Source: Clostridia bacterium (GTDB taxonomy: Bacteria > Bacillota > Clostridia > Christensenellales > CAG-1252). Taken from it: 64,000 nucleotides of DNA. Shown piece after piece: positions 51,111-63,712 of the stretch (position 1 is the stretch's first letter; each line of letters starts with the position of its first letter). The notes under the pieces are model-generated. The model was not told where the DNA came from, ran no database searches, and saw only the letters and a program-made list of their open reading frames with translations. The position numbers and the translations under genes are program-made. The stretch covers positions 70,486 through 134,485 of the forward strand of contig JAIKVL010000004.1 of assembly GCA_024685775.1 (NCBI GenBank), written 5' to 3'.

Positions 51111-52667
51111 TTAATTTCGTCCGATCGGCGCGCGCTTCGACGCGATCTTGTCGAGTAAGGCGTAATCTTTTTTCCCGATCTCCGTTTTCGGCATCTCTTT
51201 CAAAAAGACGATTTCAGACGGAAACGCATAGCGGATAACGTTCTGAGACAGGACCTCGCGGATCTTTTGCGCTTTAATCTCTTCCGAATATTCGGAATCA
51301 TCCGTGCAAAACAAAGCAATTTTCGTTTTTCCGTTTTCCGTATAACCGACCGCCGCTGCGTCCGTCAAAAAGCCGACGTCCATCGCCGCGCGTTCGATCT
51401 CCACGGGATAGACGTTCATTCCCCCGATGACGATCACGCGCTTCTTTCTGCCGGTAAAAAAGAAGAAGCCTTCTTCGTCTCGATAGCCGAGATCTCCCGT
51501 CAAAAGAAACTCCGATCTCGTATCGCTCGATCCGAGATACCCTTCCATCATGCAATCGGTCGAGACCGCGATCTCTCCGATCTCGCCGCTTTTCGCTTCC
51601 GATCCGTCCTCGCGGACGATGCGAATCTTCGCATCGACGGGCTTTCCGATCGATCCGAGCTTATCTTCTCCTTTGGAGCAAGCGGCGCAAACGGAGACCG
51701 TCTCCGCGAGCCCGTAGCCTTGATACAGTCGGCTTTCCGATCCCGCCCTCATCGCGCGTTCGTCATAGCGCGCTTTGAGTTTTTCGGGAAGAGAATCGCC
51801 GCCCGAAAACGCAAGGACCATATTTCCGATCCCTTTTAAATAGTCCTTGTTTTCCAAGAGTTTTCGAAACATATTCGGGACGCCGAGAATGATCGAAACT
51901 TTTCCCTTTTTGACGTATTTCGCTGACTTTTTTACGTCAAAGTACGGAAGAATGACGCCCTCCGCGCCGCCCGACACCGCGCCGTGCAAAGAGGACGACA
52001 GCCCGAAACCGTGATAAAACGGCAAGACGAGCAAAACGCCTTCCGAAGCAAGCGGGATCTTCGCGAGCGAGACGGTCGCTTCCGCGTTTTTATTGAAAGC
52101 GGCGTTCGTGATCCGAAGGATCTTCGGCTCCCCCGTCGTCCCGCCGGAAGGAAGATACAACGCGACGTCTTCGCCTCTCGATTCGGCGTTTTCCACACGC
52201 GCTTCCCCGATGGCGGAATAAGGATAGGTCGGTTTTTCGAAGTTTCTTGCGAAGAATTTCAGAAACCCTCGCTTTACGGGCGAGAAGTACCCGACGAGAT
52301 TGCAGGTGATCCGCTTGACGGGAAGCTCCTTTCCGAATCCGACGCGGCAGATCAAGAAGGACGCGCCCGCTTCTTTCAGTTCCTTTTCCAGAGCGTGCGT
52401 CGGAAGCAGAGGATGCGTAACGAAAACCGTTGCGCCGATCTTATTGAGCGCATAGATCGAAAAGACGCATTCGGGGCTGTTCGGCAGATTGATCGCCACG
52501 ACGTCGCCTTTCTTGACGCCGAGCCGCGAAAAAGCATCCGCGACGCCGTTTACGCGCGCGGCGACTTCCTTTCCCGCGAACGTTCGCCCGTAAAAGGAAA
52601 GGCACCGCTCCGAAGAAAGCACGCGGCTGATAAAATATTCGTAAAATGATAGGTTAACGTCCGACAT
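51111..52667 (-). CDS. ANL-superfamily acyl-AMP/acyl-CoA ligase
   Basis: 518-aa ORF with LPSGGTTGEPK (A3), GYGLAET (A5), TGDLGYRDEEGFFFFTGRKK (A7/A8) and PKTEIGKK (A10). Confidence 0.85.
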   Translation of the reverse strand: MSDVNLSFYEYFISRVLSSERCLSFYGRTFAGKEVAARVNGVADAFSRLGVKKGDVVAINLPNSPECVFSIYALNKIGATVFVTHPLLPTHALEKELKEAGASFLICRVGFGKELPVKRITCNLVGYFSPVKRGFLKFFARNFEKPTYPYSAIGEARVENAESRGEDVALYLPSGGTTGEPKILRITNAAFNKNAEATVSLAKIPLASEGVLLVLPFYHGFGLSSSLHGAVSGGAEGVILPYFDVKKSAKYVKKGKVSIILGVPNMFRKLLENKDYLKGIGNMVLAFSGGDSLPEKLKARYDERAMRAGSESRLYQGYGLAETVSVCAACSKGEDKLGSIGKPVDAKIRIVREDGSEAKSGEIGEIAVSTDCMMEGYLGSSDTRSEFLLTGDLGYRDEEGFFFFTGRKKRVIVIGGMNVYPVEIERAAMDVGFLTDAAAVGYTENGKTKIALFCTDDSEYSEEIKAQKIREVLSQNVIRYAFPSEIVFLKEMPKTEIGKKDYALLDKIASKRAPIGRN

Positions 52668-52699: not shown

Positions 52700-53809
52700 T
52701 TATTCTTTCTCTTCGTCCTCTTCCGACGGTTGGATCAGCGTCACCGAATCAAGAATCTCGATCGAATTCGAATCTTCCGATCCTTCCAAACGTTTCGTTA
52801 AGATCTCGGTTTCCTCGGCGGCGTTCGGCTCCTCTCCGAAAGAGATCTCTATCTCTTCCCTCTCGGGCGAGTCCGCATTCGAGAAATCGTCCCAATTCTT
52901 GCTCTCCTCTTCGGGAACGACGACTTCCGCCGCGCTCGTATCGAAGCTCGGAGCGAATTTACGGAAGAAGAAATACCGCGCGACGGCGTAGGTCAAGAAT
53001 CCGAGAAAGAATCCGCCCGTAACGTCCGAAAGGAAATGCGCGCCGATCACGATGCGGGAATACGCCATAATAAAGACGTACAGCGCGGAAATAAAGGCGA
53101 TCCGTCTTTCCCTGCCCGCATCCCCCGGAAGGACGTCGACGATCGCGCAGAAGATAAAGAGATTGGTCGCGGCGCAAACGTGCGACGAGGGGAAGGAATG
53201 CATTCCGTGGGAAGTAAAGAGGTTCTTCAAAGAAGAGGTAAACCCGTTGATTTTGTACCACGGAGTAAATGCGGCAAACGAACCGGCGGACGCCATCTCG
53301 TAATAGCGCGGACGGCTCCAAATGAATTTCAGGACGTTTGAGGCAAGAAGCGTGGAGATCACGCAGACGACGGATCCGAAGATCAATAAAAGAAGCAGCG
53401 GCTTCTTTTTATCCTCTCCCACCTTGCGAAGCGCAAGAAAAGTCAGCGGCGTCAAGACAACCGCCGCTCCGATCGCGACAAGCAAACGATAGACAAAGGA
53501 TTCGAGATAAGTCTCGCTTGCGAAAAAACCGAAAACGAGATAGGACGCGGTTACCGCGCCGACGCAAATCAGCCGCTTGAAAAAGAGCGCGCTCTTTTTC
53601 TCATCGAGCGAGAAAAACAGCATCGCAAACGTCGCGGCGACGATCACGAAGGGCGGGAACGTCCCGACGCTTTCAAAGACCTTCGCCATCACGTTATCGG
53701 GCTGAAAGAGCGCGTCGGAAAGCTTCATATCGAAAATCCCTCCGAGGACGAACAGCACCGTTACGAGCAGAAAAACGCAAAAATAGGTAATTTTCTTTTC
53801 TTTTGTCAT
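52700..53809 (-). CDS. PAP2-family membrane phosphatase with acidic C-terminal extension
   Basis: About 369 aa from MTKEKKITYF, preceded by GAGGAG. It has the PAP2 motifs WSRPRYY, FPSSH and SRIVIGAHFLSDV, multiple TM helices, and a last ~90 aa rich in D/E. Confidence 0.82.
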   Translation of the reverse strand: MTKEKKITYFCVFLLVTVLFVLGGIFDMKLSDALFQPDNVMAKVFESVGTFPPFVIVAATFAMLFFSLDEKKSALFFKRLICVGAVTASYLVFGFFASETYLESFVYRLLVAIGAAVVLTPLTFLALRKVGEDKKKPLLLLLIFGSVVCVISTLLASNVLKFIWSRPRYYEMASAGSFAAFTPWYKINGFTSSLKNLFTSHGMHSFPSSHVCAATNLFIFCAIVDVLPGDAGRERRIAFISALYVFIMAYSRIVIGAHFLSDVTGGFFLGFLTYAVARYFFFRKFAPSFDTSAAEVVVPEEESKNWDDFSNADSPEREEIEISFGEEPNAAEETEILTKRLEGSEDSNSIEILDSVTLIQPSEEDEEKE

Positions 53810-53813
53810 TGGT

Positions 53814-56800
53814 TTACTCCTCTTTAACAGAAGGCAAAGAGCCATTCTGAATATTCCATATTTCGCTATCGAACCCGTCGTAGATCGCGCTTTCGTAGAA
53901 ATCGGAAACGGCGGCGAGTTTCGCGTTTACGCCGACGTTATCCAAATTCTCGCGAACGAAGACGTCCACGCCGTTCAGATAATAGCAATCGCGAATGACG
54001 CCGGTATCCGCGTCACCCTCTTCGCCCGTCCGGAAGATCTTGCCCACAAGCCCCGCCTGCTCACTCGAAACGGTGGCGAGAGAATAGACGTCGACGATAT
54101 GCGACGACTCCGTAAAGGAGAACGCCCCGACCGCGCCGCCGATCAGGTTTCCTTTCAGTTTGACCGCGCCGATCACCGCGCGCTCCGCCTTTTCCGTAAG
54201 GATGCCGGCAAGACCGCCCACTATGAACTGAGGTTCTGACGACTCGATCGAGCAGTTTCCGCTTACTTCCGCGTCATAGATCTCCGTTCCCATGCCGGCC
54301 ACGCCGCCGAAGGCGACGTAAAGCCGATTGCTATCGATCGCGCACTCCGCCGAGACTGTTTGTACGCTCGCCCGAACGCGGGAAACGATTCCGAAGGAAA
54401 CGCCCACGATCCCACCCGAAGCGCAAAGCAAATCGAAATCTTGCGTACCGAAAATCGTCTCTTCCAAAACCGACTCGTCGGCGGAAGAAAATGCGTAAAC
54501 GGAATCAGAAGAAACGAACGTGGTTTCGATCAAACCGTTCGCCTCGCCGACCGCGCCGCCCGCATACGCTATGCCTCGGGAACTCGCACTGACCAAAGCG
54601 GAAGAATCCGAACGGGAAAGCTTACCGTACGAAACGCCGATGATTCCGCCGACGACGACGTGATCTCCTTCCGCGGTGATACCCCCGCCCGAAACGGAGA
54701 CCTCATCAATCTCGCCGTAATTCGTTCCGACCGCGCCGCCCGCGATCAACTCGGCGGCGTTCAAAACCATAGTTGCATCTACGGTGGAATTCTTTATATC
54801 CGCAGACGAGATCGCGGCGATGGCACCGACGGTCAAATCGGATGCGGTAGCAGTCAAATCAAGATTGACCGTGAAAAATTGACAGAATTCGCCTTCCGAA
54901 AGCGAATTGATCGATCCGATCGCACCGAAGACGACTTTTCGAGAGGACGAAATCGTAACGGTCGAGAAGATGCTTATGCAGTCGAGGTTCGTTCCCGTCG
55001 ACTTCGCCGCAACGATTCCGATCGTCGCGTCCGCGCTTGCCGACATAGTCACCGAAGGCGCGTTAATCCTGACGTTCTGGATCGAAGCGTCCTCAAAGGT
55101 TTGCCCGAATAAAAGTCCGAACGTCGATTCGTCGTCCAACGTCACGTTTACGGCATTGAACGTGATCTCAGAATTGATCAAATCGAAACTCGAAGCGCTC
55201 GATGCGAACAAACCGTAATTACCGTGCGCCGTGATCTCGCCGACGTTCAAAACGAAAGAAACGTCCGAGATCTCACCGATAAGGACATCGAATAAATTCG
55301 TTCCTTGCAAAGTAACGGTAACGGAACCGCTGCCCGACAAGTATCCGTTCAGGGAGAACGGCTCGGAAATCGTTCCTTCGAGATCTTGATCCAAGACGTA
55401 ATGCGCGCCCGCGTTCCGACCCAGCTTTTTCAGATCGGCGAAAGACGCGACGACGTAGGGATCCGACCGCGTCCCGCTGCCCGAATCAAAGCCTCCGAAG
55501 GTCGCCAACGAGATGTCTACACGGACGACTTGGTCGTACAAATTCGTTATAACGAGAGTTCCTTCGCCCGCCGCGGTAAAGATCAAATTGCGCCCCGAAA
55601 CGGAAGCGTTCGAACCTTCATAGTCGAAGCGAACGATCTTCGCGATCGCGTCGTCCGAAGTGATCAAAACGGAGTCGTCCAAATCGATCGAAACGACGTC
55701 GTCGAGTTCAAGGGCGGTCAACGCCGTGTTATCCTCTGCCGAAAGAACGGAGAAATCCGAATCTTTCGAGAGGAACAGCGAATAATCGACCGGCGCGTAC
55801 ATAAGCCCGCTGACGAATCCTTCGATCGAAGAGACCGCCGCACGGAACGCGCCGACGCCGTACTTCGTTACGCCGGAAACTTCGGGGATCGTTACGGAGA
55901 ACGCCGCATCGTCCAAAACCATAACGTTCGTATAGGTCGCGGTCCCTGCCGCCGCCAAAGCGGGAACGGTATATCCTTCGACCGCGAGGATCAAAGCCGC
56001 GTCGGACAAGGAGCAACCGTCGGACGAAAGCGCGAATCCCGCGGCGGTCAGAGAATCCGCCGAATTCTTTTCCACAGAGAGGACGGAAAGCACTTTCGAG
56101 AAGGACGAGGAAATCGCTTCGTTGACGAGCGCATAGCGCGCGTCGCCTTGATTTTCGCCGTTTAAGCGGAATTGAACGTTACTCGCCGTAACGCCGTCCG
56201 CCCTGCCCGCGAGATACGCCGAAACAGAGCTTCGAGAATAGACCTTGACCAGCAGGGAAACGTTCGAAAGCGTGCCGCCCGAAACCGTTTTGAACGCCGC
56301 GAACGACGCCTCGTCCGAAAGAGAAATCTCGATCGTCAGATCGGTAAACGCGCTGTCTTCCGCGCTCTCCGCGATCGAGACTTCGCCCGACCCGGATCCC
56401 TTGATCGACACGTTTTCCACCGTCGCATTATAAACGACCTTCCCGAGGATCGGTCCGCTCCAAGCGTCGCCGCCGACCAGGTTCAGATTCTTCACCGTTC
56501 CGCCGTCGATAAATCCGAAGATGCCGTTTTCGGGGATCTCGGGAGCGACAAAGGTCGCGCCGTCGAAATCGATCGTTCCGCGGAAAGGCGCGCTCGAAGT
56601 AAAGAGCGCGGGGAACGCAAAGGACGAGATCTCGCCGCTTCCCGCATCCCATTTGAAATGCGCCGTGGGATTGGCGTCGAGAACGGATTTCATATTTTTG
56701 TAATAACGGGATTCTTTGATGAGATACGGAGATTCCGGCGTTCCTTCTCCTTCGAACGCTCCGAAACCGGATGCCGAATAAGGAACTTCGAACGCTTTTA

Positions 56801-59800
56801 CGCCACCCGAAAGATAGCCGTACAAAACGCCGTCGGCATTGTCGATGACCTCCGCCGTCCCGTTCGTGATCGAAAGCGCGTCGCCGCCGTCTACCCAAGC
56901 GACGGAAGGCGCGATGCCCGAAACGAATTTCGGAAGAATGGAATACAAATCCACGGTCGCCGTCAAATCGATTTTCGAAAGACGCTCGATTTGCCGTTGC
57001 GGAGCGACGACTGCGCCTAAGGCCTTAATATACGGATAGCGATCGTTCTCGACTTCCAAATCCGTATTAAAATCATCGCCGACGTAGCCGTAAGAAAGAT
57101 TGGCGATCGTGTGATCGAGATAGCCCGCGTCAACGGCGGGCAGATCCCCGAGCGACGCGTCGATCACGAAGGAAAACGCGCGACAATTTACGAGCGTTCT
57201 CGCGATCGAATATTCGTTTGCGACGCCCGCAAAGTACACGGTTTCAACGATGACGTTGGTCGCAGAGTAGAAGAGACCCGCACCGATATGGACGAAAGAA
57301 ACGGTCGAATAGCTCCGCCTTACACTTGAACCCTCACCTTCCGCAAAGAACCCGCCCGCCGTGCCGTCCGTGCAATCGATCGAAAGATGGGAAGAGGACT
57401 CGCTGATCGTAGCGTTTTCCGTCGTCCCGACGATACCTCCTATCTTTCCGTTCGCGACGATCGAGCCGTCCGCGCGGCTGAGACAGATATCGCCGCTATG
57501 TTCGCCGGAAATTCCTCCGACCGTTGCGTTGACGCTCGCTGCGCCGCGCAAATCGATCACAGATCTCACGCCTTCGATAGATCCTTCGTTTTTCGCAGAC
57601 GCGCCGCCCGCGATCAAATTCCCGTCGCCCGTGGCGGTGAGCGAGAGTTCGTTCGGGCTGTTATTCATAAGCAGTTTTTCGCCGTACAAAACCGAAGCCG
57701 CTATACCGCCGATCTCGCTATCCGAATATTCGGCGGTACTGACGTTCGCGCGAACGAAAATCGCGCTGTCCTCGATCGCCAAGGTTTTCGATTCATAAGT
57801 AACGCCGCCGAAATATCCGCGCCCTTGAAGGATACACTCGAAAGGCGCGCTCTTCGATCCGACGGAAAGATTTTTCGCCTCGCCGCCGAGGGTGTAAGTC
57901 GCAGCGCCGATCTCATTTTCCGACGCTTCCGAAGAGATCGACCCGGAGATCGAAACGTTTCCGATTCTTTCGGAAACCGAGCGAGCGAGTCCGCCGCAAA
58001 CGAAATGAGAAAGTTTACCGACGGTCACGCGACAGGATTCGACCGAGACGTTTTCGATATCTCGGACGGTATCGACCAATCCGAAGAATTCGATCGACCC
58101 GGCATCCTCTTCGCTGAAAGGAGTAAAGACGAATTCGACGGAGCGAAGAATACCCGTCGCCGTGCCGGAAGCGATATTCTCTACGCCGCCGACCACGAGC
58201 GCGTCCAAAGAAGAAACGGAAATCGTGGCGTCGTGATAAGAAATGCCGGAAACGGAATCCGCGCTTCCCGTAAAACCGACGACTTTGGTCGAGTCGCGAA
58301 CGGAAAGGGACAGCGAAGAAGAAACGTCGCGAAGCGCCATTACGGACGGAGCCACGCCATACGTTTCGCAACCTTTAACGGAAAGCGTTCCGGAAAGCGC
58401 GAGATCGGAAACGGAAGCGCGCGGCATATCCGCGGCAAACGCCGCCGCCACGCCCTCGCCTTCGACCGAAGCGCGCAACGCCAAAGAGGAATTCCCCGTC
58501 TTGGCTAAGGATCCGACGGAAGCGAACGCGCCGCCGAATATGACTTCTTCCGCTTTTACCGCGCCTTCCAAACGGACGCCGGAGATCGAGACGTTCGCCG
58601 TTCCCGCTTCGCAAGCGAGAGCACCGACCGACGCTTTGCGCGCGTCGAGATCGAGCGTAAAGACGTAATCGTGCGCGTCGATCGTGACGTCGTTTTTACA
58701 AAGAACGCCGCCGATCAAGACCTCGCCGCATTCCGAAGCGCGAACGGTCAAAGAACCGGAAACGTCCGTTTTTCCGTCCGCAGTCAGGCTGACGCCGCCG
58801 ACTTCCGCATAATCGACGGAGGAAAGCTCGATCGAGCCGAACAGACGGACTTCGCCGCCTGCGCCATACGTCGACACGCCGCCGACGCGCGCATTTCCCG
58901 TCCTTCCGCCGTCGACCGAAATCATGACGTTAAAGGAGCCGCTCAGCCCGACTTCGTCGTAAATCGTGACGCCGCCGACGGTCGCGTCTTTCGAAGCGAC
59001 CGTTAAGGACGCCGCGCATTCGGAATCTTTCCAAGCGTTTTCGTTCTTCAATCGTTCGGTCACCCCCGCGAGGATGACGCGCGCGGGCGCGCTGACTTCG
59101 AATTGAGAGGTCAGAGAAACGCCATTTGCCGCAAAATCACCGTTTCGGGACAAGCCGAAAACCTCCGCGGAGGTCGCGGTCGCATTCAAACCGCCTCCGA
59201 TCGAACAGTCTTCGAGTTTCGCTCCGCCGACGGAAATTCCGACGTACGAAACGGAATCGCCCTCGACGACGAAAGAAGAATCGAAAACGGTGTCTTTCGC
59301 TTCGACTTCCCCGTCGTACGAGCCTCCCGCGAGATAGGCTTCTTCCTCCGCGACGATCGAAACGCCGAGCGTCAACTCGCAATCATTTAATTGCGTCTTG
59401 CCTTGCGAAGCGACTGTGCTCAAAGAAACGACGTTCGCCGAAGCGGACAAAACGCCCGAGAATTTTACGCCGTCGAAAACCGCGTTTGCGGAATACGCCG
59501 CACAGGCGAATCGAACGATGTCTCCCGAGACGGAGAAATCCGAGAAGGCGATCTCACCGCCCGTGACGGCAAGATCGGTCGCCTGATACGCAAGGACGCC
59601 GAACGCGCCGCTCGACGCCGTGCGACCGCTGCCCGCGATTTTGAAAGAAACGTTTTCGAATTCCGCGCCGCGGATCTCCTTTGCAAGCAAACCGTTTTGT
59701 TCGAAAGAAACCGCGTTCGCGATGATCTCGATCGCCATATTTTCGAGTTTCGCACCGCGAATCACGTTAAAAAGCGGAGCGGACAAACGAAGGTTTTTCA

Positions 59801-61955
59801 AAGTCGCCCCGTTTCCGTCGATCTTTCCCGCAAAGACGAGGAGAGAAAGCGCGTCGACCCGAACGCCCGTAAAATCGTAAACGTCCGCAGACAGACGGAA
59901 GTACGCGTCCGGATGCTCCGCGAGAAGCGAGGCGAGCTCCGCCGCCGAAGAAGGCGCGTACGGTTTCAAAGCCGTGCCGTAGTCTCCGTCCGTCTTAACG
60001 TAGACGGCTTCTTCCGAGAGGGCAGATTCGACCAAAAATTCGGAATACGTCTTGCTCTTCAACGCGAGCGTGTAGACGCCGTCCGTCTTGATATAATTGG
60101 AAAGCATGACCGAAGTTTCCCGCGCGTCCAAGGACGTGACGACGGCGCCGTTCGCATACAAATCGTAAAAAGATGCGTTGGCGGCGGGCACAAAGGTCAA
60201 AATACCCGACGTGATTTTCAGCGCGGTAGGCGCGTCTGCTCTTTTGGGGGTGCGGAAGACAAGTTCTTTCGAGAGGAACGAGATTCCTTCTTGATATTTC
60301 GCGTAGACGCGCGCGGAGTGGACGCCCGCAGGGATGGCGTCGGAATAAAAGTTTTGCGTAACTTCGATCTTTTCGCCGTCGAGGATCAAGCCGTAGCCTT
60401 CGGCGTTCGGAAGCGCGGTCCAAGTCAACCCGGACGCGCCGAACGCAAGCCCGTCGACCGAATGCACGGCGACGATTTGCGGATCCGAGCAAACGAATAT
60501 CTCGTTCGTCGAAGCCGAACTTTCAAACAGCGCGTTCGAAGAAAGCGCGCGGACGGATACCGCCGCTCCCTCCTCTATGAGCGCGAGCGCGCTCGCGGCT
60601 TTCGTCTTCCCGCTTTCGTTAAGATCCTCGCCGAGCATTTGCGTTTCGGACAAAGTAAATTCGACGCCCGACACGTCGTATTCGACGGCTTGATCTCCGC
60701 GAGAGATCGTGATGCGATAAGAACCCGCGTTTTCGACCGCTTCGTATTTTACGGAAAGAGTCCCTTCGTCAAAGGACGCGTCGAAAGCTTCGGGGGCGGA
60801 TAAAGGCGTATAGACGACGCCCGTCTTTTCGACGTAAAAGACGAGTTCGCCCGAATAAGAAGACGCGGCGTAATAGACGTCGTCGCCGTCCGTGCGAACG
60901 CGGATCTTATGCTCTCCGACCGCCGTCGAGACGGGGATCGCGTAGGTTTCGTACACCGTCCGAACGAAAGTCGTCCCGTCCACTTCGACGACGTACGCGC
61001 TCTTCAAATCGCGCGCATTCCAAGACAGCTCGAACGCCGTCTTGCTCTCGTTCGGCGCGATCGAAAGCCCGTCCGGAGCCGCGTCCGCGATCGGGAAAGA
61101 CATATCCGCCGAAAAATCCGAAGGAGCGTACAGCCCGTTATTGCTGATAAGGCGCATACGATAATTCGTCTTGTTTCCGTTCAGCTCGGGCGCGAACGAC
61201 ATTTTGGTCTTTCCGTCGTCCGCGGGAATGGTCGCGACGGGAAGCGCGCCGGCGTCCTTATAGATCTCGTAGGAGACGGCGGAAGCGGAATAACGATTCG
61301 TCCAAACGATGGTTTTGTCGCTCGGATCGAAAGAAAGTTCGACGGGAGAAAGCTTTTTCAAAGGGGCTTTTCCGTCTTTAACGGTGACGGCGTAGGTCGC
61401 GCTGACCTTACTGGAAGCGTACGTCACGCCGTCGCCGAGGGTTTGCATTTGGATATAGTACGTTCCGTCCGAACGGAAAGTAAGATCGAAATAGGTGGAA
61501 TTCTTGGGCGCGGTAACGGATTTTCCGTCGTAATAGATCTTATATCCGTTATTGTTCAAAACAGAATTCCACAAAAGGCGATTCGCCGTCATCGAAATGC
61601 CGTACGGCGCGGACAGCTGCGGCAACAGTTCGGAAGATTGTGTGCGAGCGTAAGTCAAGATCGGAGAGAACGCGCCTCGCCCTTCCGTCGTCACGGCGCG
61701 AACGGAGATCTCGTGATCCTCGTAATCGAAGATCGTAAGTTCGAAAGACTCCTCGTCGGAAGGAAAGATCTCGTCGTCCACCTTGACCTCGTAACCGATC
61801 GCGCCTTGAACGCTCGACCAAGTCAGGACTTCGTTCGAAACGGAAAGATCATCGGGAACGCCGATCGACGGACCCGACGATTTTTTACAACCGACGAACG
61901 TAAGGATCAAAAGGACGAAAACCGTAATCGCAAGCAATAATTTACACTTTTTCAT
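53814..61955 (-). CDS. Giant surface lipoprotein (about 2,713 aa): 7 FN3-like modules plus GLUG/beta-helix repeat super-modules
   Basis: Starts MKKCKLLLAITVFVLLILTFVGC (lipobox FVGC). There are seven ~85-aa modules with W...GY signatures. Many GG(I/L/V)(V/A)G...G.I GLUG-like turns follow (IGGIVGTTENATI, AGGAVGTNYGEI, VGGIIGVSYGKL, SGGIVGVSFGIV, VGGLAGILTEKA). No LPXTG, S-layer or choline-binding tail was seen. Confidence 0.8.
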   Translation of the reverse strand: MKKCKLLLAITVFVLLILTFVGCKKSSGPSIGVPDDLSVSNEVLTWSSVQGAIGYEVKVDDEIFPSDEESFELTIFDYEDHEISVRAVTTEGRGAFSPILTYARTQSSELLPQLSAPYGISMTANRLLWNSVLNNNGYKIYYDGKSVTAPKNSTYFDLTFRSDGTYYIQMQTLGDGVTYASSKVSATYAVTVKDGKAPLKKLSPVELSFDPSDKTIVWTNRYSASAVSYEIYKDAGALPVATIPADDGKTKMSFAPELNGNKTNYRMRLISNNGLYAPSDFSADMSFPIADAAPDGLSIAPNESKTAFELSWNARDLKSAYVVEVDGTTFVRTVYETYAIPVSTAVGEHKIRVRTDGDDVYYAASSYSGELVFYVEKTGVVYTPLSAPEAFDASFDEGTLSVKYEAVENAGSYRITISRGDQAVEYDVSGVEFTLSETQMLGEDLNESGKTKAASALALIEEGAAVSVRALSSNALFESSASTNEIFVCSDPQIVAVHSVDGLAFGASGLTWTALPNAEGYGLILDGEKIEVTQNFYSDAIPAGVHSARVYAKYQEGISFLSKELVFRTPKRADAPTALKITSGILTFVPAANASFYDLYANGAVVTSLDARETSVMLSNYIKTDGVYTLALKSKTYSEFLVESALSEEAVYVKTDGDYGTALKPYAPSSAAELASLLAEHPDAYFRLSADVYDFTGVRVDALSLLVFAGKIDGNGATLKNLRLSAPLFNVIRGAKLENMAIEIIANAVSFEQNGLLAKEIRGAEFENVSFKIAGSGRTASSGAFGVLAYQATDLAVTGGEIAFSDFSVSGDIVRFACAAYSANAVFDGVKFSGVLSASANVVSLSTVASQGKTQLNDCELTLGVSIVAEEEAYLAGGSYDGEVEAKDTVFDSSFVVEGDSVSYVGISVGGAKLEDCSIGGGLNATATSAEVFGLSRNGDFAANGVSLTSQFEVSAPARVILAGVTERLKNENAWKDSECAASLTVASKDATVGGVTIYDEVGLSGSFNVMISVDGGRTGNARVGGVSTYGAGGEVRLFGSIELSSVDYAEVGGVSLTADGKTDVSGSLTVRASECGEVLIGGVLCKNDVTIDAHDYVFTLDLDARKASVGALACEAGTANVSISGVRLEGAVKAEEVIFGGAFASVGSLAKTGNSSLALRASVEGEGVAAAFAADMPRASVSDLALSGTLSVKGCETYGVAPSVMALRDVSSSLSLSVRDSTKVVGFTGSADSVSGISYHDATISVSSLDALVVGGVENIASGTATGILRSVEFVFTPFSEEDAGSIEFFGLVDTVRDIENVSVESCRVTVGKLSHFVCGGLARSVSERIGNVSISGSISSEASENEIGAATYTLGGEAKNLSVGSKSAPFECILQGRGYFGGVTYESKTLAIEDSAIFVRANVSTAEYSDSEIGGIAASVLYGEKLLMNNSPNELSLTATGDGNLIAGGASAKNEGSIEGVRSVIDLRGAASVNATVGGISGEHSGDICLSRADGSIVANGKIGGIVGTTENATISESSSHLSIDCTDGTAGGFFAEGEGSSVRRSYSTVSFVHIGAGLFYSATNVIVETVYFAGVANEYSIARTLVNCRAFSFVIDASLGDLPAVDAGYLDHTIANLSYGYVGDDFNTDLEVENDRYPYIKALGAVVAPQRQIERLSKIDLTATVDLYSILPKFVSGIAPSVAWVDGGDALSITNGTAEVIDNADGVLYGYLSGGVKAFEVPYSASGFGAFEGEGTPESPYLIKESRYYKNMKSVLDANPTAHFKWDAGSGEISSFAFPALFTSSAPFRGTIDFDGATFVAPEIPENGIFGFIDGGTVKNLNLVGGDAWSGPILGKVVYNATVENVSIKGSGSGEVSIAESAEDSAFTDLTIEISLSDEASFAAFKTVSGGTLSNVSLLVKVYSRSSVSAYLAGRADGVTASNVQFRLNGENQGDARYALVNEAISSSFSKVLSVLSVEKNSADSLTAAGFALSSDGCSLSDAALILAVEGYTVPALAAAGTATYTNVMVLDDAAFSVTIPEVSGVTKYGVGAFRAAVSSIEGFVSGLMYAPVDYSLFLSKDSDFSVLSAEDNTALTALELDDVVSIDLDDSVLITSDDAIAKIVRFDYEGSNASVSGRNLIFTAAGEGTLVITNLYDQVVRVDISLATFGGFDSGSGTRSDPYVVASFADLKKLGRNAGAHYVLDQDLEGTISEPFSLNGYLSGSGSVTVTLQGTNLFDVLIGEISDVSFVLNVGEITAHGNYGLFASSASSFDLINSEITFNAVNVTLDDESTFGLLFGQTFEDASIQNVRINAPSVTMSASADATIGIVAAKSTGTNLDCISIFSTVTISSSRKVVFGAIGSINSLSEGEFCQFFTVNLDLTATASDLTVGAIAAISSADIKNSTVDATMVLNAAELIAGGAVGTNYGEIDEVSVSGGGITAEGDHVVVGGIIGVSYGKLSRSDSSALVSASSRGIAYAGGAVGEANGLIETTFVSSDSVYAFSSADESVLEETIFGTQDFDLLCASGGIVGVSFGIVSRVRASVQTVSAECAIDSNRLYVAFGGVAGMGTEIYDAEVSGNCSIESSEPQFIVGGLAGILTEKAERAVIGAVKLKGNLIGGAVGAFSFTESSHIVDVYSLATVSSEQAGLVGKIFRTGEEGDADTGVIRDCYYLNGVDVFVRENLDNVGVNAKLAAVSDFYESAIYDGFDSEIWNIQNGSLPSVKEE
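59997..61859 (-). repeat. Seven tandem FN3/Ig-like coding modules in the giant gene
   Basis: Recurring signatures: VLTWSSVQGAIGYEVKVDD, LLWNSVLNNNGYKIYYDG, IVWTNRYSASAVSYEIYKD, LSWNARDLKSAYVVEVDG, VKYEAVENAGSYRITISRG, LTWTALPNAEGYGLILDG and LTFVPAANASFYDLYANG. The boundaries are approximate. Confidence 0.6.
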
Positions 61956-61975
61956 ACCGCACCTCGCACCTTTTG

Positions 61976-62004
61976 ATTGTATCATAGCGTGCGCGCGTTT
62001 ACAA
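61976..62004 (-). promoter_or_regulatory. Sigma-A promoter with extended -10 for the giant gene
   Basis: Minus strand TTGTAA (62004-61999), a 17-nt spacer, then TGaTACAAT (-10 at 61981-61976). GAGGTG precedes the ATG. Confidence 0.5.
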
Positions 62005-62126
62005 GATGCTTAATTATAATTTAATAAAACCAACCGTCTATTTGTGCTTTACGCGGAAGAAGCCGATTTTTACGCGCAAATTTCTCCCGAAAAACATATA
62101 ATGCAAAAAAAACAAAGGAGATTTTT

Positions 62127-62546
62127 ATGAACGAAGAAATCAAGCGAAACGGAGAAGCCGCCGTCCTTCCGATCCGAAAGCTCACGCTGACGAACGAGTG
62201 TTTTCGGCGGGAGATTCGGACGGGAGCGTACGCGCAGATCACCGTCATGAGGATCCCCGTCGGAGGAGAAATCGGGCTCGAAATCCACGAAGATCTCGAT
62301 CAAATCCTCGTGATCGAATACGGCGTGGGATCGGTCTACGCAGGGAAAGAAAAGAAAGAAGTCGCCTTCATCGGAGAAGCGGACGGAAGTTCCGCCGTCT
62401 TCATTCCCGCGGGAACGTACCATAACGTCGTCAATCGAAGAAACGTCCCCCTGCTGCTCTTTTCCGTCTACGCGCCGCCCAAACACCCGATCGGCACGAT
62501 CCACCGAACCAAGCTCGACGCCGATCTCGCGGAAGACGAAACCTGA
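62127..62546 (+). CDS. Cupin-domain protein
   Basis: 139-aa ORF with G-x5-H-x-H...E and P-x-G-x2-H-x3-N style cupin motifs (GGEIGLEIHEDLDQ, IPAGTYHNVVN). Confidence 0.75.
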   Translation: MNEEIKRNGEAAVLPIRKLTLTNECFRREIRTGAYAQITVMRIPVGGEIGLEIHEDLDQILVIEYGVGSVYAGKEKKEVAFIGEADGSSAVFIPAGTYHNVVNRRNVPLLLFSVYAPPKHPIGTIHRTKLDADLAEDET

Positions 62547-62616: not shown

Positions 62617-62717
62617 CTCGCGTTTTTTCCATCATTCCGTTATACCCTCTTGATTTAGCGATAAAATGGTGATAGAATAAAAAAGCAATTTCGAAAAAAC
62701 GCAAAAAAGGAGTATCT

Positions 62718-63227
62718 ATGAAATACATAATCAAAAATAAGATCATGTCCATCGGCGCGGGCAGCACCGTTCGCGATGAAGCCGGAAACGACCTTTTCTT
62801 CGTCAAAGGAAAAGTCTTCACCTTTACGAAGAAAAAATTCCTCCGCACGATGAATAAAGAGGTGCTTTACACCATTCAAAACAAATTCCTTTACTTCTTC
62901 CTCCCGAAAGTCTTTATCAAAGACGCCGACGGAAACAATATCTTGATGATCAAGAAAAAGAGTTTCTTCTCTTTCAAGCAAAACTTCGAGATCATCCCCG
63001 CCGAAGGCAAAGAAGATCTGAACGTTGAGATCCAAGGCGATATCATCGGCTGGAACTACGATATTTTGGAAAACGGCATCGCCGTCGCCCATATCAGAAG
63101 AAACTTCAATTTGATCAAAGATTCCTTTACGCTCGAAACCGATATGGAAGACAAAGCCGCTTTCTACATCGCGTTCGTTATCGCTCTCGACAATTACTTC
63201 GACGCGCTCAGCCAAGATTACAGATAA
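62718..63227 (+). CDS. LURP-one-related / tubby-C-like (DUF567) protein
   Basis: 169-aa ORF with a repeated beta-hairpin pattern (MSIGAGSTVRDEAGNDLFFVKGKVFTF...) typical of PF04525 members. Confidence 0.65.
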   Translation: MKYIIKNKIMSIGAGSTVRDEAGNDLFFVKGKVFTFTKKKFLRTMNKEVLYTIQNKFLYFFLPKVFIKDADGNNILMIKKKSFFSFKQNFEIIPAEGKEDLNVEIQGDIIGWNYDILENGIAVAHIRRNFNLIKDSFTLETDMEDKAAFYIAFVIALDNYFDALSQDYR

Positions 63228-63712
63228 TGGATCCGACCTTTCCTCCTCTGAAAAGGATCGGTCAACAGCTTACCGACGAAGAATGCTCCGAACTCTTATC
63301 GAAAGAGACGCGGGGCGTTCTTTCTTTGCGCGGGACGAACGGCTATCCCTACGCCTTCCCCATCAACTTTTATTTCGAGAAAGAAGAAAATAGGATCATT
63401 TTCCACTGCGGAAAAGAAGGTTATAAGCTCGACTGCATCCAAGCAGATCCGCGCGCCGCGTTCACCGTCACCGAGCAGGGAGAGAAAAAGGAAGGGAATT
63501 GGTGGTACACCGCGCGAAGCGTAATCGCCTTCGGAAAGATCGAGATCCTTTCGGATCCCGCTCGAATCGCGGATCTTTCGAGAAAACTCAGCGCGAAGTT
63601 TACGAGCGACGAAGCCTACGTCGAGCGGGAGATCAGTCTCTACCTTCCGAAAACGATCTGCCTTTCCCTTTCGATCGAGCATCTCTCGGGAAAACGCGTA
63701 AAAGAGAAATAG
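63227..63712 (+). CDS. Pyridoxamine 5'-phosphate oxidase family (NimA-like) flavoprotein
   Basis: 161-aa ORF: ETRGVLSLRGTNGYPYAFPINFYFEKEENRIIFHCGKEGYKLD. Split-barrel family pattern. Confidence 0.75.
   Translation: MDPTFPPLKRIGQQLTDEECSELLSKETRGVLSLRGTNGYPYAFPINFYFEKEENRIIFHCGKEGYKLDCIQADPRAAFTVTEQGEKKEGNWWYTARSVIAFGKIEILSDPARIADLSRKLSAKFTSDEAYVEREISLYLPKTICLSLSIEHLSGKRVKEK

Follow-up and report, generated by a model that had tools for sequence, protein, structure and literature searches.

What might a bacterium do with a single 8.1-kb gene whose product of 2,713 amino acids (aa) belongs to a family labeled 'hypothetical protein' in public records, and which yields only one sub-threshold match when searched over its whole length against Pfam and NCBIfam? 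This question is raised by a 64,000-nucleotide stretch of DNA (the window) from a Clostridia bacterium (GenBank assembly GCA_024685775.1, contig JAIKVL010000004.1), which is part of a contig (C35) of a 1.71-Mb, 97%-complete genome. The original prediction had read the gene as coding for a lipoprotein with seven FN3-like modules, followed by ~2,050 aa punctuated by GLUG-like turns that restart three times at cap segments. Profile searches and two high-confidence AlphaFold2 models bear out a lipoprotein with an FN3-like stalk and three β-helix units. We consider it probable that this giant protein is a non-enzymatic, membrane-lipid-anchored, rod-like surface fiber, most likely a long adhesin or spacer.

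The giant gene occupies the minus strand in a single uninterrupted frame of 2,723 codons (53814..61985) and runs from an ATG at 61955 to a TAA stop at 53816-53814; the open frame confirms that one 8.1-kb gene accounts for all 2,713 aa. The ATG has GGTGCGAGGTG just upstream, and the same style of start recurs in 16 of 17 relatives, which share an 'MKxK...' N-terminus ('MKxKxFL...' in the orthologs). Two promoter candidates sit in the 171-bp divergent gap between the giant gene and a cupin gene, namely TAGACG-16-TATAAT (62040-62013) and TTGTAA-17-TACAAT with a TG (62004-61976). Since the −10 element of the second candidate (61981-61976) lies downstream of the alternative ATG at 61985, the ATG at 61955 is favored as the start. 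Many plus-strand open reading frames (ORFs) of 250-470 aa within the gene were rejected as antisense shadows. The predicted features of the gene and its product, listed from the promoter to the C-terminus, are as follows:

61976..62040 (−): two overlapping sigma-70-like promoter candidates (consensus matches only)
61887..61955 (−): signal peptide with lipobox (MKKCKLLLAITVFVLLILTFVG followed by C23; PROSITE-type pattern)
61617..61877 (−): FN3 module M1, aa 27-113 (profile match to the FN3 of E. faecalis GH31)
61356..61616 (−): FN3 module M2, aa 114-200 (hhalign 97% to M4 and M7)
61086..61355 (−): FN3-like module M3, aa 201-290 (hhalign 85% to M7, 59% to M4)
60801..61085 (−): FN3 module M4, aa 291-385 (hhalign 97% to M2 and M6)
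60465..60800 (−): module M5, aa 386-497, longer and divergent, of uncertain fold (hhalign ≤56% to the others)
60246..60464 (−): FN3 module M6, aa 498-570 (hhalign 96.8% to M1, 97.5% to M4)
60000..60245 (−): FN3 module M7, aa 571-652 (hhalign 97.6% to M2)
57006..59999 (−): β-helix unit 1, aa 653-1650, with an N-cap helix, ~30 coils and a C-cap (AlphaFold2 and Foldseek)
56751..57005 (−): linker domain X1, aa 1651-1735, a probable small β-sandwich (AlphaFold2, low confidence)
55746..56750 (−): β-helix unit 2, aa 1736-2070, a cap and a short helix (hhalign and AlphaFold2)
55500..55745 (−): linker domain X2, aa 2071-2152, an Ig-like (Big_2/intimin-like) β-sandwich (Foldseek)
53817..55499 (−): β-helix unit 3, aa 2153-2713, starting with a cap, followed by coils and a GLUG-like cluster; its C-terminal cap ends ...FDSEIWNIQNGSLPSVKEE (AlphaFold2 and hhalign)

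Ser, Ala, Gly and Val together make up 43.5% of the protein. There are no long DNA repeats in the gene: the best direct repeats are ≤43 nt at ≤86% identity, which agrees with the earlier remark that long identical stretches are absent and leads us to reject recent slippage as the source of the repetition. As self-BLAST of the protein returned nothing at E < 0.01, its internal repeats were resolved by profile–profile comparison.

The N-terminus, MKKCK...LTFVG followed by Cys23, satisfies the PROSITE-type pattern {DERK}(6)-[LIVMFWSTAG](2)-[LIVMFYSTAGCQ]-[AGS]-C, in keeping with the lipobox (LTFVGC) that had been proposed. This pattern is matched in 16 of 17 relatives, with the exception looking shortened by its gene call, and the lipobox Cys is near-invariant (mostly residue 23 in the relatives, with a range of 23-35). 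Further, the genome of the window codes for both Lgt (PF01790, 196.8 bits) and LspA (PF01252, 105.4 bits). From the motif and the presence of these two enzymes, we infer that Cys23 would be lipidated. The signal peptide is the sole hydrophobic segment of the protein, which displays neither an LPXTG motif nor a C-terminal hydrophobic tail nor any Pfam anchor domain; the predicted lack of an LPXTG, SLH, CWB or LysM anchor is thus upheld. Across the 97%-complete genome, sortase (PF04203) was not found and there was no match to SLH or CW_binding_2 (CWB2). With Lgt and LspA present in such a genome, the lack of a wall anchor is as expected from the repertoire of the organism, and the lipid anchoring of very long proteins may be the principal means of surface display in the lineage.

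We compared the N-terminal modules by hhalign, using sub-alignments from 16 orthologs. M1, M2, M4, M6 and M7 are homologous among themselves (90-97%) and M3 joins the set through M7, while M5 (112 aa) is gappy and related only weakly to the other modules. A profile of the whole protein matched module M1 to the FN3 domain of the E. faecalis GH31 enzyme (6M76/7F7Q, E 5.7e-4). A merged stalk profile, built from 48 sequences of six modules including M3 and leaving out M5, recovered several solved FN3 domains: 6M76/7F7Q (GH31) at 3.1e-7 and RIM-BP (6Q9M) at 1e-6, as well as those of NagJ (2W1N), 3MPC, chitinase A1 (ChiA1, 1K85) and IFNAR1. None of the modules reaches the threshold of Pfam fn3 (PF00041), for which the best is M1 (E 0.042, 14.5 bits against a cut-off of 25) and the others give nothing. 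By profile homology, six of the seven proposed modules are therefore assigned to the FN3 type, with the assignment of M5 uncertain. The W...(G/S)Y signature ascribed to every module is strictly present in four of the seven; the exceptions are M4 (W...AY), M7 (F...FY) and M5, in which the W is missing.

The C-terminal ~2,060 aa are formed by three homologous units. When this part was cut at its three cap segments (aa 661, 1738 and 2159) and the pieces compared by hhalign, the units aligned in register from the cap (unit 1 with unit 3 at 99.5%, E 1e-22; unit 1 with unit 2 at 97.7%; unit 2 with unit 3 at 98.0%), so that the three restarts noticed at first reading correspond to genuine homologous units. 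In a further alignment, units 1 and 3 also pair at their C-terminal ends, indicating that these two are homologous end to end, with unit 1 holding ~440 additional residues of coils relative to unit 3. Self-alignments of the units are shifted by ~60 and ~297 residues, which points to a coil period of ~30 aa; the ~60-aa shift in unit 1 equals two coils.

Two AlphaFold2 models, both built from a 16-sequence alignment, cover this region. That of aa 640-1740 (mean pLDDT 89.0, pTM 0.77) displays one unbroken β-helix at ~aa 711-1600, followed by a small β domain of lower confidence. That of aa 1736-2713 (mean pLDDT 89.8, pTM 0.64) displays two β-helices that bear short cap helices and are separated by an Ig-like domain. 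The helices in the models span ~890, 300 and 500 aa for units 1, 2 and 3, respectively. Both models are all-β with a coil period of ~30 aa, and right-handed β-helix proteins populate their Foldseek lists; a Foldseek search of a viral library likewise recovered right-handed β-helix proteins and a phage 'putative IgA1 protease'. The original description of this region stands as regards the three β-helix units; it had overlooked the two small β-sandwich domains at aa 1651-1735 and 2071-2152, which separate the helices. Of these, X1 has strands at model residues 1042-1089 with a pLDDT of just 50-84 and no Pfam match, and X2 gives ~90-residue Foldseek matches to intimin and Big_2 domains (probability 0.98-1.0).

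The relationship of the helices to GLUG proteins proved to be a distant one. We found 15 motifs of the GG[ILV][VA]G type, 13 of which fall in two clusters, one in unit 1 (aa 1416-1534) and the other in unit 3 (aa 2406-2606), in the C-terminal third of each unit and with a spacing of mostly 26-36 aa between turns. The other two are at aa 1082 and 1141, and none occurs in unit 2; hence, GLUG-like turns do exist but do not run along the entire region as had been suggested. Pfam Glug (PF07581) has no match to the giant protein at E values up to 1 and none in the genome at E ≤ 0.001, and in a 1,039-aa homolog from the same family it scores 18.6 bits against a cut-off of 20.5. A unit-3 profile made from eight orthologs was searched against 1.84 billion representative proteins and retrieved 13,281 of them at E ≤ 1e-3 and 149 at E ≤ 1e-30, most being 1,000-5,000 aa long with many matched stretches. 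All eight of the matches that we sampled (E 1e-31 to 1e-62) are positive for Pfam Glug (E 1e-28 to 1e-80) and two of them also bear Peptidase_M26_N; in three of the eight (P0030, P0114 and P0125), the stretches that score best with Glug and with the unit-3 profile overlap.

Peptidase_M26_N (PF05342) matches the first helix coils of the giant protein itself at aa 708-770, below threshold (16.6 bits against a cut-off of 27.7). The same domain was matched in 10 of 16 orthologs (E ≤ 0.1, best 3e-6) and at 41.9 bits in a same-family homolog. Foldseek comparison with the PDB gave as its top probabilities the β-helix of the M26 IgA1 protease (7UVL 0.99, 7UVK 0.99, 7JGJ 0.98, 6XJA 0.96) and 3N6Z (1.00 and 0.90 for the two models, with a TM-score of 0.41-0.45 on the target). 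These matches extend over ~320 aligned residues at 14-16% identity; those to 7UVK and 6XJA, and the 0.90 match to 3N6Z, were obtained with the model of unit 1. Matches of lower probability comprise PL6 lyases, autotransporter passengers, Ag43, EtpA, Fap2 and tailspikes. As the models are multi-domain, global TM-scores are poor, and the local match probability alone is informative. The retrieval of Glug proteins by the unit-3 profile indicates that the helices are divergent members of the GLUG/M26_N β-helix superfamily lying below the Pfam thresholds. By these profile comparisons, we place them in it at the superfamily level only, which is also how far the initial GLUG assignment holds, since Pfam Glug itself finds no match. 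A literature search on GLUG combined with β-helix yielded nothing useful.

The gene was found as a single copy, without internal stops, in 12 of the 13 other genomes searched in the genus, and the full-length orthologs are 2,603-2,746 aa long. The records bearing orthologs are named 'Christensenella sp. UBA1252/4247/3770/3798/3217', 'Clostridiales bacterium' and 'Clostridia bacterium'; NCBI puts them in Christensenellales and one of them is a metagenome-assembled genome from water-buffalo rumen. These orthologs were detected by an alignment-based scan; a contig scan with the single giant protein as query gave no matches and a word-based homolog search with unit 3 alone returned just one strain-variant fragment. 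In other genera of the same family, there are proteins of 1,031-2,830 aa that combine a lipobox, FN3 and β-helix. Among the genomes searched outside the family, covering 16 other families of the order, there was no match.

Across the genus, the giant protein is 31-55% identical to the window's copy, compared with 85-92% for UvrB (full-length matches), 85-95% for SpoVG, 60-76% for MurC and 43-60% for PAP2, the product of the gene that follows it. Identity along the protein, taken as the mean over all pairs of 16 orthologs, is highest in the stalk, with M2 (64%) being the best conserved part of the whole protein, followed by M3 (54%) and M1 (52%). The FN3 modules other than M5 range over 43-64%, the caps over 41-51% and the helix bodies over 33-39%; M5 shows the lowest conservation of all modules (33% identity, 16% gaps). 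In the helix bodies, the window's copy is just 20-30% identical to the 13 more distant orthologs.

At a finer scale, strain variants in two other metagenome assemblies have the same length of 8,142 nt, with no indels and ~68 synonymous and ~68 non-synonymous changes. The synonymous divergence (dS) of the giant gene is 0.034, matching the 0.037-0.059 of its neighbors, and its ratio of non-synonymous to synonymous divergence (dN/dS) is 0.33 over the whole gene against 0.12-0.22 for the neighbors. By region, dN/dS is 0.15 for the stalk and climbs to 0.37, 0.40 and 0.48 for units 1, 2 and 3, respectively. Thus, purifying selection acts on the gene and becomes weaker farther from the membrane. The intact gene in 12 of 13 genus genomes, its near-constant length and the strain comparison all bear out the notion of an old, selected architecture, and no frameshifted copy was found; the strain-level hypervariability that had been raised as a possible sign of host or phage interaction was not seen. 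As a separate observation, one strain-variant contig of 2.6 kb opens with 150 nt (L025:1-150) that do not align to the window, and the 321-aa product called on this contig begins inside unit 3; the probable cause is a break or chimera of the assembly where the contig ends, rather than a truncated allele.

In the mechanism that we favor, the protein would be exported by the Sec system, after which Lgt and LspA would lipidate and cleave it at Cys23, as predicted from the motif and the enzymes. Seven FN3-type domains, which start ~10 residues after Cys23, would form a conserved stalk leading through and past the cell wall. This stalk would carry the three right-handed β-helix rods in series, with the small Ig-like domains as joints. 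If extended, the whole protein would measure ~55-65 nm, as estimated from ~30 + 10 + 16 coils at 0.48 nm (4.8 Å) plus nine sandwich domains at 3.5-4 nm. The fast-evolving helix surfaces would be the exposed, ligand-contacting or spacing part; we infer an adhesive or spacing role for helices exposed beyond the wall, with adhesion to a rumen particle, polymer or partner cell as the most likely one. On this reading, the three helix units arose by an ancient internal duplication older than the genus.

Several observations weigh against this reading. The fold of M5 is uncertain and lipidation is read from the motif only. With multi-domain models being hard to superpose, every Foldseek match in the PDB has an E-value above 1e-3, and the link to IgA1 proteases is therefore left to match probability, the sub-threshold Pfam match and the profile searches. 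Moreover, dN/dS is below 1 everywhere, with no hypervariable region and no indels, whereas adhesins exposed to pressure from hosts or phages often vary more; such a pattern would be equally compatible with a structural role. The latter could take the form of a structural coat or spacer, i.e., a constitutive envelope component such as an S-layer-like shield or a wall-distance ruler, in place of a ligand-specific adhesin. We regard this as unlikely. The gene is indeed genus-wide and single-copy, with a fixed length and a fixed synteny beside the envelope genes PAP2 and murC, it is under purifying selection without hypervariability, and searches of the genome revealed no S-layer anchor domain of the conventional kind. 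However, there is no evidence of self-assembly interfaces, helix bodies that are only 20-30% identical within the genus are hard to square with a conserved lattice, and at least 13 other giant genes in the genome could serve equally; RsaA does appear among the Foldseek matches, but its probability of just 0.15 is not significant.

A cell-surface carbohydrate-active enzyme, in which one or more of the β-helices would be a polysaccharide lyase, glycosidase or depolymerase of the pectate-lyase fold acting on plant fiber, would suit the rumen habitat, and the Foldseek lists contain PL6 alginate lyases, fucoidan lyase, GH28 and phage depolymerases of the same fold class. Those matches are nevertheless low (probability 0.01-0.38, TM-score ≤0.3), and the structural matches of highest probability are non-catalytic helices. 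No enzyme family in Pfam or NCBIfam was matched, including the CAZy-type Pfam families. The helix-body columns conserved at ≥90% in the 16 orthologs are almost all Gly: within aa 761-1560, 1841-2070 and 2261-2620 no Asp, Glu, Lys, Arg or His column reaches that level, and the conserved charged residues are restricted to the FN3 modules, caps and joints. An enzyme of this kind is accordingly improbable. The same holds for protease activity: HExxH is absent from the giant protein and from all of 16 relatives, which argues that it is not an M26 protease, and as Peptidase_M26_C and the M26 middle domains also have no match in it, we reject a reading as an IgA1 protease. The initial statement that there is no recognisable catalytic motif thus withstood all these searches. 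Being long, exposed and fast-evolving at its distal end, the protein might also be thought to serve mainly as a receptor or docking fiber for phages or for the gene transfer agent (GTA)-like particles encoded elsewhere in the window. This is highly improbable, as there is no genetic linkage or co-variation with the GTA-like particle cassette, dN/dS is below 0.5 with no indels between strains, and phages can exploit any exposed protein without that being its function. An annotation artifact or decaying pseudogene would draw on nothing beyond the organism being known from metagenome assemblies alone, and its likelihood is negligible: the 8.1-kb frame is open, the gene is intact in 12 of the 13 genus genomes searched and in two independent strain assemblies of the same length, its dN/dS of 0.33 reflects purifying selection and the AlphaFold2 models have a pLDDT of ~89-90. 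The pseudogene is rejected on these grounds.

The favored reading as a surface fiber can be placed against known systems. In IgA1 protease, the related β-helix is a non-catalytic, substrate (protein)-binding gate (PMC7695701). The M26 IgA1 proteases (S. pneumoniae IgA1P/ZmpA; 6XJA, 6XJB, 7UVL, 7UVK) and BACOVA_03286 (3N6Z) likewise feature a smooth right-handed β-helix with an N-terminal cap. Unlike these proteases, the giant protein has neither HExxH nor the M26 middle and C-terminal domains; its helices are 1-3 times longer than the ~270-aa helix of IgA1P and come three in series, and its predicted anchor is an N-terminal lipid instead of the LPXTG of the IgA1 proteases. With the GLUG proteins, it shares kinship at the profile level and the GGxxG turns at the C-terminal ends of units 1 and 3, whereas most of its coils lack the motif. 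The Gram-negative Ag43, EtpA and Fap2 and the passengers Hbp, SepA and EspP are similarly long right-handed β-helix rods used in adhesion or aggregation; however, their Foldseek probabilities are low (0.02-0.30), and their type V secretion and outer-membrane anchoring are inapplicable to a lipobox protein of a Firmicute.

The closest functional analogs are the SRRP of Lactobacillus reuteri (5NXK) and Giant1-5 of Apilactobacillus kunkeei, which are also very large extracellular proteins combining a β-solenoid with an elongated stalk in gut- or host-associated Firmicutes with small genomes. They have no sequence relationship to the giant protein, 5NXK has a Foldseek probability of only 0.02, and the serine-rich repeats of SRRP are lacking. 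SRRPs are LPXTG-anchored and exported by the accessory Sec system, as against the predicted N-terminal lipid anchor here. The polarity is opposite to that of A. kunkeei Giant1-4, in which the solenoid is at the N-terminal end (PMC12863079), whereas the giant protein has its anchor and stalk N-terminal and its helices C-terminal. Both SRRP (PMC5866549) and Giant1-5 (PMC12863079) exemplify non-enzymatic β-solenoid adhesins of Gram-positive gut bacteria. The building blocks (FN3, Ig-like and GLUG-type β-helix) and the stalk-plus-solenoid logic are already known from other giant adhesins, and the giant protein thereby joins a known class of giant modular β-solenoid surface proteins.

What is gained is that an unannotated family, fixed in a genus of uncultured rumen Christensenellales, now has a domain map and two structure models of high confidence. 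This group is ecologically prominent, while its cell surface is barely characterized; our literature search on Christensenellaceae R-7 adhesins found nothing useful. Of more interest as a lead is the pattern in the lineage, where giant proteins predicted to be lipid-anchored are numerous and neither a sortase nor an S-layer module was found. The genome codes for 13 non-overlapping ORFs of at least 1,900 aa including the giant gene, amounting to 6.9% of its 1.7 Mb, as compared to the ~6% of a 1.5-Mb genome taken up by the giant genes of A. kunkeei (PMC12863079). There are 54 non-overlapping ORFs of at least 1,000 aa (15.8% of the DNA), at least 14 of which bear a lipobox, though the 1,000-aa class includes some housekeeping genes. 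The giants include a lipobox protein of 6,322 aa and an ORF of 5,729 aa ~17.5 kb past the end of the window; examples are found at C30:1-18968, C35:151964-169153, C27:1-10254 and C38:64377-72263. Such giant, putatively lipid-anchored proteins offer a testable lead on how these bacteria attach to particles or partners. A bolder proposal, which we hold to be distinctly unlikely, is that giant lipid-anchored fibers replace classical Gram-positive display and that the giant protein, conserved in the genus and coupled in translation to a PAP2 lipid phosphatase, is a core envelope organizer in a new envelope architecture. If so, its tightly conserved FN3 domains near the membrane would serve to dock it to components of the wall or membrane, and the cell's outer limit would be defined by the three rods.

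The genes flanking the giant gene in the window are:

51111-52667 (−): acyl-CoA/long-chain-fatty-acid ligase-like ANL gene, present in most orthologous loci
52700..53809 (−): PAP2-family membrane phosphatase, 369 aa (Pfam PAP2, E 6e-15)
62127-62546 (+): cupin, divergent from the giant gene
62718-63227 (+): LOR, divergent from the giant gene
63227-63712 (+): PNPOx, divergent from the giant gene

The synteny is fixed, with cupin, LOR and PNPOx divergently upstream. The order downstream is the giant gene, PAP2, the acyl-CoA-type ligase (usually), spoVG, murC, two small genes, uvrB and uvrA. Two minus-strand frames (62070-62504 and 62655-63215) were rejected as upstream genes, being antisense shadows of cupin and LOR; tblastn of these shadow frames still gave 29-51% 'identity' to orthologous loci, which calls for caution in frame assignment. 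The ATG of PAP2 at 53809 is 4 nt past the TAA of the giant gene, and its GAGGAG ribosome-binding site lies within the last codons of the latter. By this arrangement, PAP2 is predicted to be co-transcribed and translationally coupled with the giant gene. The pairing is kept at every same-genus ortholog whose downstream flank was retrieved. The ANL gene is missing in UBA1252, where spoVG directly follows PAP2, and is thus not an obligate partner of the giant gene.

For other genera, the downstream comparison was limited to the four loci with a long downstream ORF (L026:1-2518, L027:10284-13550, L028:1-3279 and L030:1-2492). In these, a secreted protein of ~830-1,090 aa follows in place of PAP2, and hence the PAP2 link looks specific to the genus of the window. 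Both of the two downstream secreted proteins that were scanned contain MBG domains. The FN3 and β-helix lipoprotein together with this secreted protein could be a conserved two-gene surface module in those other genera.

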